From: a virus
Taxonomy: Duplodnaviria > Heunggongvirae > Uroviricota > Caudoviricetes
IMG/VR virus record: IMGVR_UViG_2609459830_000005
Span: 1-5,728 of that record
Length of the DNA stretch: 5,728 nt
Reading direction: 5' to 3' (one strand)
Every line of letters starts with the position of its first letter. Within the stretch, counting starts at the first letter, position 1. This document shows, one piece after another, positions 4,392 to 5,728 of the stretch. The notes beneath the pieces were generated by a model. The model ran no database searches and was not told the origin of the DNA. It was given only the letters and a program-made list of their open reading frames with translations. Made by a program: the position numbers and the translations under genes.

Positions 4392-4460
4392 CCTCACTGT
4401 GGGGCAATCAAAATTGTCACACCGTGCGTCATTGAAGTCAACCCCACCGTGGGGCATAAT
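4392..4460. promoter_or_regulatory. Divergent back-to-back promoter region with an array of three CACnGTG operator-like palindromes
   Basis: + strand promoter: TTGAAG (4432-4437), 17 bp, CATAAT (4455-4460), driving the Mnt-like gene. - strand promoter: TTGACT (reverse complement of 4436-4441), 17 bp, GACAAT (reverse complement of 4413-4418), driving arc-like and ant. The two -35 hexamers overlap. Palindromes CACtGTG (4395-4401), CACcGTG (4420-4426) and CACcGTG (4445-4451) have centres 25 bp apart. The outer two extend to CCTCAC-T-GTGGGG and CCCCAC-C-GTGGGG. Confidence 0.5.
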
Positions 4461-4497
4461 TTACTTATTGTGAATTTTTCCTGTTTGGACTAATGGT

Positions 4498-4872
4498 ATG
4501 AGTAGAGAAGACCCTCAACTTCGGATTAGGCTTCCTGTTGAATTAAAAAAAATAATTGAAGCGTCATCAAAACAAAATAATCGTTCTATGAATGCTGAGA
4601 TTGTCACTCTGCTTGAGTTGGCGATTCGTGTTTGTCGTGATTTTGGGCCGGAGGATGGTCCTATCGTTCAGCAGTTTAAAGAACAACTAGATGCGATAAA
4701 CAGAAAATATGATAAAAGCGAGCATGAAAAACTTATACCTCAACTTTTAGAAATCATAGAAAAACAGAAAAAACAAGTAGATAAACTTATTAGCATGGTT
4801 GAAAGATCAATTCCTCTTTCAGAGGAATATAAGCAGAAATATCTTGGTGATGACAACAAAAAACCCACCTGA
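4498..4872 (+). CDS. Mnt-like / Arc-family RHH DNA-binding protein (124 aa) with a predicted C-terminal coiled-coil
   Basis: N-terminus PQLRIRLPVELKKIIEASSKQNNRSMNAEIVTLLELAI shows the Arc/Mnt RHH signature (R-x-P...NxRSMN-x-EI). The C-terminal half is Lys/Glu/Gln-rich and helical-looking (EKLIPQLLEIIEKQKKQVDKLISMVE), consistent with a Mnt-style oligomerisation domain. It is divergent from arc-ant. The ribosome-binding site is weak (GGAC). Confidence 0.85.
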   Translation: MSREDPQLRIRLPVELKKIIEASSKQNNRSMNAEIVTLLELAIRVCRDFGPEDGPIVQQFKEQLDAINRKYDKSEHEKLIPQLLEIIEKQKKQVDKLISMVERSIPLSEEYKQKYLGDDNKKPT

Positions 4873-4879
4873 TGGTGGG
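4854..4879 (-). terminator. Candidate intrinsic terminator on the minus strand, immediately after the L-like ORF stop, overlapping the 3' end of the Mnt-like gene
   Basis: Stem cccacc (4864-4869) / ggtggg (4874-4879) with loop tgat, followed on the minus strand by TTTTTTGTTG (reverse complement of 4854-4863). It begins 10 nt after the TAA stop at 4891..4889. Confidence 0.55.
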
Positions 4880-4888
4880 CATAATCCA

Positions 4889-5728
4889 TTACTGCGAAAG
4901 TTTGTTAATGGAAAGGAAACCGCCAAAATTAGCCACCATGCCGCGCATCTCACACCCGCGCATGCACTTGCTGCATCTGTCCTTACGGATATCGGTGGTG
5001 GGTTTATCGAACTCATCCGCCACAGCCCCGCCCGTGTAACCACACTCATCAGAGCGGTAGGTCCACATACAGGTATTCGCCAGCATAATGCGACCGGGAA
5101 ACAGCGCTCCGTCCGTCTCCGTCGGTGTTGCCAGCACAAACGAGGCTGTCATGGCCGTCAGCTCTGACATCTGCTCCACCACCCAGCGGTCGCTCAGCTC
5201 CTGCTCCGGGTCCGCTTCCGGATTGCCCGCCACAAAATTCACCGCATCCAGAAAACGGGCATTTACGGTCTTCACCGATGTCAGATGGTTTATCATGAAT
5301 CCGTCACCGGTCGTCCAGCCCGGGTTCGCCAGAACATACTGATATCCTGCGATTTTTTCCTGCAGGGATTTCACCCGACTGGCCTGTTCATCAATCAGCC
5401 GGTTCTGCTCTGTCAGCGCCGCCCGTGTTCGTCCTTCATTATCTGAGGCTTCAGGCAGAGACATTGACGGCGTTTTATGCGCGATTTCATCTATCGTCAG
5501 TGCATACTGGCGCGCAGACTCCCTGGCCTGCTCCTGATTCTGGTACAGCGTGTACCATGCTGCAGCCCCCAGCATCACCAGTCCGGGTACGCCACCAACC
5601 AGCCCCAGCGCACCGCTCATCAGACGTGAGCCCACCGCCGTTGTACTGTTCAGCGCATTCTGGGCGGCGCTTCTGGCAGCAATATTTCTGTTCAGGCGTT
5701 CCTGTGTGGCCGCCAGACGGGCCTCTGC
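4889..5728 (-). CDS. L: Chimeric tail protein: lambda gpL-like C-terminal domain (4 Cys) joined in frame to a non-L, tape-measure-like N-terminal region; 5' end off window
   Basis: The last ~123 aa (ARFLDAVNFVAGNPEADPEQ...FPGRIMLANTC.WTYR.DECGY...CSKCMRGC...NFGGFLSINKLSQ) match the C-terminal half of lambda gpL as recalled (..KVYARFLDAVNFVNGNSYADPEQ...FGGFLSINKLSQ). The upstream part (..ALGLVGGVPGLVMLGAAAWYTLYQNQEQARESARQ..) does not resemble the gpL N-terminus; it is Gly/Ala-rich, hydrophobic and then helical, like tape-measure proteins. The reading frame is open with no stop from 5728 down to 4892; the track 'start' at 5635 is a GTG inside the continuing frame. Confidence 0.75.
   Translation of the reverse strand, partial: AEARLAATQERLNRNIAARSAAQNALNSTTAVGSRLMSGALGLVGGVPGLVMLGAAAWYTLYQNQEQARESARQYALTIDEIAHKTPSMSLPEASDNEGRTRAALTEQNRLIDEQASRVKSLQEKIAGYQYVLANPGWTTGDGFMINHLTSVKTVNARFLDAVNFVAGNPEADPEQELSDRWVVEQMSELTAMTASFVLATPTETDGALFPGRIMLANTCMWTYRSDECGYTGGAVADEFDKPTTDIRKDRCSKCMRGCEMRGMVANFGGFLSINKLSQ

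Follow-up and report, generated by a model that had tools for sequence, protein, structure and literature searches.

A suspected direct repeat flanking the mnt-like gene of a prophage antirepressor module: an operator/promoter element and a module-edge terminator that most likely resemble each other by coincidence

The immI region of phage P22 has the order mnt, Pmnt/Pant, arc, sar, ant and ant terminator. In P22-like phages this region has been termed the "ant moron" (Villafane and co-workers, PMC2629481); in P22 it is embedded in the late operon, where it is traversed by late transcription on the way to the tailspike gene (PMC2629481). PMC4104026 and PMC2629481 both cite Juhala et al. 2000 for the moron concept. 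The Mnt repressor of P22 has the half-site GTGGACC and its symmetric site is bound by a tetramer (PMC2726951). Here we describe a module of this kind in a window of 5,728 nt (positions 1 to 5,728 of the IMG/VR record IMGVR_UViG_2609459830_000005; "the window" means this whole stretch), and in particular two sequences flanking its Mnt-like gene, which encodes a ribbon-helix-helix (RHH) repressor of 124 amino acids (aa) (4498-4872, plus strand; Pfam Arc domain, E = 3e-7). A preliminary description of the window had taken these sequences, copy 1 at 4443-4470 (cccaccgtggggcataatttacttattg) and copy 2 at 4864-4894 (cccacctgatggtgggcataatccattactg), for a diverged direct repeat. Both strings are present exactly at these positions.

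The gene belongs to an insert of low G+C content (about 3160-4888) between the tail genes L and K. Judged by its sequence, the insert is a P22 immI-like ant moron composed of mnt, operators, arc, ant and ant terminator; RHH repressor genes with a P22-type ant, divergent promoter-like sites and a position inside a late operon were all found by Pfam and a consensus scan. We found that the two copies are very probably elements of different kinds, copy 1 an operator/promoter and copy 2 a terminator at the module edge, that share a short G+C-rich palindrome followed by an AT-rich tail. Their likeness is most likely coincidental, and the "repeat" is probably no real feature, with nothing in it that goes beyond chance and juxtaposition.

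From its sequence, copy 1 combines operator O3 with the mnt -10 box and belongs to a divergent Pmnt/Pant region with three Mnt-type operators. Its description as an operator/-10 element thus stood, and the combination of O3 and the Pmnt -10 box was conserved in at least 49 distinct control regions. O3 (CCCCAC-C-GTGGGG, 4442-4454) makes up the core of copy 1; it takes up the Pmnt spacer and borders directly on the -35 box of Pant. O2 (CACAC-C-GTGCG, 4418-4428) overlaps the -10 box and spacer of Pant, while O1 (CCTCAC-T-GTGGGG, 4392-4404) is located at about +2 to +14 of the same promoter. The three operators follow one motif, with centers spaced 25 bp. The promoters themselves are predictions of the consensus scan: a Pmnt-like promoter at 4432-4460 on the plus strand (TTGAAG, 17-nt spacer and CATAAT, the latter at 4455-4460 being the -10 part of copy 1), and a Pant-like promoter, putatively for arc and then ant, at 4413-4441 on the minus strand (TTGACT, 17-nt spacer, TG-n-GACAAT). 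Copy 1 therefore has the layout of a Mnt-type operator, with half-sites around one central base pair, beside the repressor gene and overlapping promoters.

A position weight matrix (PWM) made from 146 sites of the operator family scored O3 at 21.9 bits, the best value in the window, O2 at 17.6 and O1 at 17.5 bits. The next site in the window had 8.9 bits and the best score in the hairpin region of copy 2 was -10.8 bits. The operator 15-mer pattern was found twice versus a chance expectation of 0.07, and O1 was conserved in related contigs. When viral contigs were scanned with the O3 15-mer, at least 59 loci (49 distinct sequences) were detected in which the O2-O3 control region was near-identical base for base. 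Among the matches listed, O2 was nearly invariant in the 49 distinct control regions and CATAAT was retained in 45 of them. The Pant -35 box read TTGACA in most relatives and, in the relatives examined, the control region was followed by a mnt gene starting MSREDPQ. The 8.9-bit site, GTCACACCGTGTATC at 1413-1427 inside J, was the sole other positive match of the matrix; it is O2-like and probably a chance occurrence.

Copy 2 is of another nature. The preliminary description had noted that it doubles as a terminator hairpin after L, and this was borne out: a G+C-rich stem of 6-7 bp with a 4-nt loop and T6 on the minus strand is positioned 9 nt past the L stop codon. The terminator, delimited by a terminator scan and folding, occupies 4858-4880 of the minus strand and reads, from 4880 to 4858, GCCCACC-AUCA-GGUGGGU-UUUUUUGUUGU. 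Its stem of seven pairs (five of them G-C) with the 4-nt loop is present in both the minimum free energy and the centroid folds, and the U-tract TTTTTTGTTGT comes directly 3' of the stem (A6 at 4858-4863 on the plus strand). These sequence features make the hairpin in copy 2 a canonical minus-strand intrinsic terminator behind L. Read on the plus strand, the same DNA is CCCACC-TGAT-GGTGGG followed by CATAATCC, which on the mnt mRNA gives a 3' hairpin that no U-tract follows. The Mnt-like protein has the C-terminus ...KKPT, and the TGA that stops its frame is part of the hairpin loop.

The hairpin is only one of three pieces of copy 2 with separate histories, the others being CATAATCCA and TTACTG. 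CATAATCCA (4880-4888), which contains the second "CATAAT", is a slot-specific junction between the hairpin and the L stop codon. It was present in all 42 L-adjacent contigs and only at the filled L/K junction; elsewhere the hairpin was followed by CTTTGCC, TTCTTTT, TTAATAT, CCTTCCC or other sequence. According to the table of open reading frames (ORFs), TTACTG (4889-4894) is made of the L stop codon (TTA on the plus strand, 4889-4891) and the last codon of L on the minus strand. It occurs also at L/K sites that have no insert, with the same TTACTGCGAAAG, where the empty site reads K-start CAT-GGGA(T)-TTACTG. Since the hairpin cassette, the slot junction and the L stop codon each have a distribution of their own, copy 2 is a composite, and the comparison of relatives contradicted the idea that the similarity is conserved as a whole unit across homologous prophages.

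The alignment of the two copies pointed the same way. The best local alignment, CCCACC-G-TG--GGGCATAAT---TTACT, had 23 matches but needed three gap blocks (one interrupted by matched bases) with 7 nt in total, and the longest ungapped word common to both copies was GGGCATAAT, 9 nt long. With copy 1 as the fixed query and 300 dinucleotide-preserving shuffles of the window, the observed score was reached by 24% of the shuffles under BLAST-like scoring. When every 28-mer of the module was used as a query, the pair scored 15.5 and was tied by 3709 versus 2401, which are two coding regions, and by the hairpin versus the ant terminator at 3173. Dozens of other pairs had scores of 13.5-15, and about fifty reached 13 or more. 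The string match is real but statistically uncompelling, and the claim of a diverged direct repeat was not supported, given the gaps, the ties with unrelated pairs and the separate origins of the three pieces.

Several observations weigh against reading copy 2 as a terminator with a coincidental likeness to copy 1. Under gap-lenient scoring, copy 2 was the best match of copy 1 in the window, and only 0.3% of the shuffles reached its score. The window's module type resembled the hairpin region more than the other types did (16.5 versus 8.5-13). The hairpin arms, CCCAC and GTGGG, are exact operator core half-sites of the window's Mnt family; judging from this sequence identity, one repressor dimer may bind a hairpin arm weakly. 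The stem sequence is unusually invariant for a terminator, which may reflect recombinational spread or the coding of KPT and could hide another constraint. The IMG/VR scans used exact patterns, which makes the counts lower bounds and the samples biased to identical sequences. Finally, we infer termination, insulation and read-through from sequence and by analogy; the sequence features, their conservation and their distribution were observed directly.

The half-site arms, the occurrence of GGGCATAAT after both elements and the gap-lenient shuffle test are also what speaks for copy 2 as a fourth, auxiliary site of the Mnt-like repressor, either as a low-affinity site in loop contact with O3, at a distance of about 420 bp, or as a roadblock on the edge of the module. 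We consider such a site extremely unlikely. The gap between the arms is 6 nt in copy 2 and 4 nt in the parent cassette described below, against 1 nt in the operators; the 6-nt gap leaves the half-sites out of phase by about half a helical turn. The hairpin's PWM score of -10.8 bits compares with 17.5-21.9 for O1-O3, and no match to the operator pattern was found in copy 2 at up to two mismatches. Neither does the hairpin sequence change in step with the specificity of the repressor. It was common to four Mnt alleles at the L/K slot, only one of them with CCCCAC-N-GTGGGG operators, and to at least eight types of RHH beta-strand elsewhere, so that an identical hairpin serves modules with unrelated Mnt proteins and operators. 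As for the rest of copy 2, CATAATCCA is junction-specific and TTACTG is part of L.

The distribution of the hairpin was much broader than the module itself. Its parent cassette has the form AAAAAGCCCAC-CTGA-GTGGGC, and the exact 18-mer AAGCCCACCTGAGTGGGC was detected at no fewer than 115 places in viral contigs. Among the 115 matches listed, 82 were intergenic, 23 were at the ends of RHH genes and 10 at the ends of other ORFs. In the intergenic cases that were read, the hairpin immediately preceded the ribosome-binding site of the next gene, one encoded on the opposite strand. The cassette-capped RHH genes encode at least eight different DNA-reading beta-strands (RFNVRLP, KFNLRFP, QVNLRLP, KVNIRLP, PFGLRMP, PYGVRLP, RFTVRMP and QLRIRLP), and the control regions read upstream of several of these types had unrelated palindromes. 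Because one cassette caps at least eight RHH types as well as non-Mnt contexts, the arms do not track operator specificity. With at least eight operator families on one hairpin, a 5-mer shared with one of the families is unsurprising (about 0.1 per family, as a rough estimate).

The stems were almost invariant, with one compensatory variant, GCCCAG/CTGGGC (locus L179), and register variants such as CCCACC/GGTGGG and GCCCA/TGGGC. A loop variant, CTGATG (locus L191), bridges the two forms, and the window hairpin can thus be described as the cassette with a 2-nt insertion. In the viral contig loci L288-L402 we observed that the cassette is very common in enterobacterial phage contigs, that the ORFs entering it all end in (K)KPT-stop with the stop codon in the loop, and that its stem hardly varies between unrelated contexts.

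Within the window's Mnt family the picture depended on the direction of the search. Among the operator-found relatives listed, 31 of the 47 distinct mnt 3' ends had the slot hairpin or the parent cassette, with the stop codon in the loop or, in several, shortly upstream of the hairpin; the downstream contexts were many and unrelated. On the other hand, this family accounted for only three of the 115 cassette places listed. An initial view that the hairpin is tied to the L/K slot and not to the module was overturned, as many members of the Mnt family carry the hairpin in other contexts. A functional link between hairpin and operator in the Mnt family was in turn removed by the reciprocal cassette scan, which showed the hairpin to be generic.

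These numbers bear on a second suggestion of the preliminary description, that of a duplicated promoter remnant. Copy 2 would then be a degenerate duplicate of the operator/promoter: a few bases inserted long ago into a type-C operator would have given the cassette, or else a second Pmnt would have decayed at this position. The palindrome arms are indeed common to both elements, and the 31 of 47 mnt 3' ends with the hairpin imply that the two have long traveled together. Still, the cassette occurs mostly outside the window's Mnt family (the three exact matches of 115 given above), and a 5-mer shared by one of at least eight operator families and a 16-nt hairpin is, by the rough estimate, expected by chance. 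The consensus scan found no -35 box at a usable distance from the second CATAAT, and this -10-like sequence belongs to the junction and lies outside the cassette. We therefore give a duplication very little credence, and the reading of copy 2 as a terminator at the module edge is retained.

The limits of the insert became clear from the relatives that share the L/K slot. CCCACCTGAYGGTGGGCATAAT was found in at least 44 viral contigs, 42 of them beside L, and was identical but for one loop base; the L/K hairpin pattern was present in 452 of 5426 complete E. coli genomes. Four cargo types were seen upstream of the slot hairpin. Three have Mnt alleles of the 106-aa, 84-aa and 124-aa types, which run into the hairpin and have only the final KKPT in common. 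The fourth has a 97-aa Mnt together with a ClpP-like gene that ends about 30 nt before the hairpin; at locus L012, for example, a 178-aa ORF at 2051-2587, judged ClpP-like by eye, follows mnt ahead of the boundary hairpin. Operators of the form CCYCAC-N-GTGRGG accompany the 124-aa type only, and the other L/K types have quite different palindromes. The same operator set with arc and ant was found in phage TL-2011b in another genome context; there, the hairpin is absent and the mnt frame is apparently disrupted.

The cargo types become identical exactly at the A-run (AAAAAACCCACCTGAYGGTGGGCATAATCCA plus L), and they are joined to at least three L alleles. At empty sites, the L stop is separated by 4-10 nt from the K start, and the sequence reads CAGTAA-(A)TCCC-ATGACACAGACAGAATCAGCGATT. 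In the filled sites, about 29 nt of the empty site, comprising the intergenic spacer and K codons 1-7, are replaced by about 1.75 kb. In the filled slot (window 3137-3159, minus strand, compared with loci L003/L004 at 540-566) K starts MLYSNILAH and not MTQTESAILAH; the module provides the Shine-Dalgarno sequence of K, its start codon and its first seven codons. The sequence comparison thus bounds the insert by the A-run that precedes the L-side terminator and by the new start of K. It also suggests that the hairpin behaves as a mosaic joint, flanked by Mnt alleles and by L alleles that reassort around it.

For the third suggestion, that of a recombination scar at the module boundary, the outcome was divided. 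The boundary is there, since conservation across cargo types starts at the A-run. The scar is not, since the insertion is a replacement: in the comparison of filled and empty sites, no empty-site sequence was duplicated at the insert ends.

A direct repeat produced by, or used for, the module's insertion, with the hairpin as one half, would have the ant terminator and not the operator as its other half, and the pair would be a scar or a substrate of recombination flanking the whole insert. The ant terminator (GACCCAGC-UUCG-GCUGGGUU, then a U-run; 3177-3196, minus strand) is the other end of the module and stands directly before the Shine-Dalgarno sequence and start of K. The L-side terminator AAAAAACCCAGCCGAAGCTGGG and the ant terminator AAAAAACCCACCTGATGGTGGG (3173-3194) are identical in 18 of 22 positions, are both followed by CAT and bracket the low-G+C insert exactly. 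Moreover, the ant terminator is the hairpin's best partner in the window (BLAST-like score 25 versus 21). But both are intrinsic terminators, so an A-run and CCC...GGG are common to them by function, and unrelated pairs reach the same score. In P22-like phages the ant terminator accompanies ant (in CUS-3 the hairpin after ant lies within the annotated "boundary sequence" bsq1), and the L-side hairpin travels with many unrelated genes. Filled and empty sites differ by the replacement of about 29 nt already described, K codons 1-7 included, and not by a target duplication. Because of the separate distributions, and because the score is no higher than for unrelated pairs, we did not read the likeness of the two terminators as a scar, and an insertion repeat of this kind appears very unlikely.

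One could also see the KKPT-stop hairpin as a mobile cassette conserved for its sequence, a preferred recombination joint of phage accessory modules that supplies a stop codon and an insulator to any gene coming to lie beside it; in the one Mnt family with operator half-sites equal to its arms, it would act in addition as a weak repressor sink or roadblock at the edge of the module. We regard this extended role as highly doubtful.

A few further features of the junction were recorded. A minus-strand promoter-like site at 4908-4881 (TTAACA, 16-nt spacer, GATTAT) would drive transcription directly into the terminator; its -35 box belongs to the coding sequence of L and is found at empty sites too, and the site was treated as a chance match. 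The ATG in GGATTATGCCC (minus strand, 4882-4880), 6 nt past the L stop as compared with 4-10 nt at empty sites, was considered as a vestigial K start and dropped, as the likeness is too short to evaluate. There is a short inverted repeat, CCATTA-N14-TAATGG, across the L stop codon at filled sites only. A 9-nt microhomology, GCATAATCC, occurs both in ant (3455-3463, codons W-D-Y-A) and at the slot junction (4879-4887). In two viral contigs (L026 and L040) a junction falls exactly at GCATAATCC, and the hairpin is fused to a truncated ant-like gene whose frame crosses it.

With copy 1 as operator/promoter and copy 2 as terminator, the control of the module can be outlined against the general background of P22 regulation, beyond the papers cited here, and of lambda biology. 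In a lysogen, Pant would be kept shut by the Mnt-like repressor expressed from Pmnt, and the L-side terminator would halt non-antiterminated transcription arriving through L. Such transcription would run antisense through mnt and in the sense direction into arc and ant, and for this reason the terminator may guard the lysogen from accidental synthesis of antirepressor. The same hairpin would cap the convergent mnt mRNA, giving it a stable 3' end with the mnt stop codon in the loop. During the lytic cycle, late transcription would be antiterminated, cross both the L-side and the ant terminators and reach K, I and J, in parallel to P22.

The window covers the tail region of a lambda-like prophage read on the minus strand, in the order J, I, K, insert and the 3' part of L. 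The tail proteins L and K flanking the insert were recognized by Pfam, and K (2422-3159) and I (1847-2524), both on the minus strand, were placed by the ORF table and Pfam. Within the insert, ant (3214-4134, minus strand) encodes a P22-type antirepressor (Pfam P22_AR_N, E = 1e-44; P22_AR_C, E = 4e-29). Upstream of it is an arc-like gene (4207-4374, minus strand; Pfam Arc domain, E = 1e-3, just under the Pfam cut-off), and both assignments agree with the RefSeq annotation of a 98.8% identical locus. The N-terminal 39-43 residues of the Mnt-like protein have about 49% identity to Mnt of P22-like phages. An ant module between L and K is also annotated in Shiga toxin (Stx) phages such as 1717, 2851, YYZ-2008 and Stx2a_WGPS8.

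A candidate for a sar-like RNA was noticed at window 4103-4208 (plus strand). A promoter-like site at 4103-4131 (TTGATA, 17 nt, TATACT, with TG upstream) lies inside the 5' end of ant, and a strong hairpin at 4164-4199 (-25.4 kcal/mol, z = -4.5) is followed by a T-run; hairpin and T-run together span 4164-4208. The RNA would possibly be about 65-70 nt long and pair with the ant ribosome-binding site, as P22 sar does. An Rfam search of 3000-5100 at E <= 1 returned two sub-threshold chance matches only, and the sar family was not matched.

Outside the module, we observed two peculiarities. In the single minus-strand frame 4889-5728, a tape-measure N-terminus (Pfam Phage_HK97_TLTM, residues 1-122 of the listed ORF) is joined to a C-terminal segment of L (positions 77-206 of the Phage_tail_L profile). 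One frame with the N-terminus of H and the C-terminus of L implies an in-frame loss of M in full, of H for the most part and of L over its 5' third, by which the prophage of the window would be defective; in the near relatives L002 and L172, H, M and L are intact. At the I-J junction (window 1600-1850), there are about 170 bp extra compared with relative L002, the distance from the I stop to the J start being about 230 bp versus about 60 bp. The extra DNA has a 39-aa ORF (1682-1801, minus strand) with a Shine-Dalgarno sequence and hairpins on either side (about 1655-1683 and 1808-1842), and from its sequence it looks like a second small moron.

The practical meaning of these results is that the control of the antirepressor module would be misdescribed if 4864-4894 were annotated as a promoter remnant or as a fourth operator. 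The limits of the L/K insert are now defined, and four cargo types have the same two terminator-bearing ends. The L-side hairpin belongs to a very common phage terminator cassette, which is usable as a marker of module boundaries. In the literature search, no paper containing the hairpin string was found. The paper on small RNAs of enterohemorrhagic E. coli prophages (PMC4104026) concerns a moron site at PR' and not the L/K slot, and a comparative paper on Stx phages mentions Ant as a gene family only. To a phage specialist the results will be unsurprising.

The closest described counterpart of the module remains P22 immI. As there, an RHH Mnt-like gene is divergent from an arc-like gene, which is followed by a P22-type ant; as in P22-like phages, the operators are palindromes with a 1-bp center, and the window's ant terminator has the sequence of that of CUS-3. 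The module sits in a late operon in the same orientation as in P22, hence late transcription must cross it. The hosts of the two modules differ: P22 immI occupies the interval from gene 16 to the tailspike gene of a podovirus, while the module of the window lies between L and K in the tail operon of a lambda-like siphovirus. Instead of the separate Mnt and Arc operators of P22, the window has three operators of one motif with the 25-bp spacing. The 124-aa Mnt has a C-terminal part unlike that of P22, and the supply of the first seven K codons by the module is likewise unlike P22.

The comparison of the two copies with the P22 Mnt operator separates them. Copy 1 has the same xCCAC-N-GTGGx layout, beside a mnt homolog and over divergent promoters, with GGGC as the outer half-site where P22 has GACC. 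Copy 2 does not have this layout, given its 6-nt center and negative PWM score. Its counterpart is found rather in ST64T, where mnt is followed by A7-TAG-GCCCGG-CGAA-CCGGGC, a terminator facing incoming transcription of the late strand, whose stem is unlike the ST64T operator upstream of mnt (AGACCAC-G-GTGGTCT). Thus, ST64T has, like the window, mnt and then a hairpin with a U-tract facing incoming late transcription, although the hairpin sequence differs.

Like moron terminators in general, those of the window combine a stem rich in G+C with a short loop and a U-tract; they lie at the edges of an accessory module that is regulated independently within the late operon, one at each end of the insert. 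Unlike the usual ones, the L-side terminator faces inward on transcription from L and does not serve, with its U-tract, to end a transcript of the module itself; the mnt frame enters it and stops in its loop. The boundary sequences bsq1 and bsq2 of CUS-3, of which bsq1 includes the ant terminator, resemble the hairpin as short blocks conserved between unrelated flanks, with alleles reassorting around them. The idea of such boundary sequences in the mosaic joints of lambdoid phages reportedly comes from the analysis of HK620. The block in the window looks like a functional terminator and not like an anonymous linker. The components, then, are all of ordinary known kinds: the module is P22 immI-like, the operator is of the Mnt type, and the terminator, an intrinsic one, sits at a mosaic joint.

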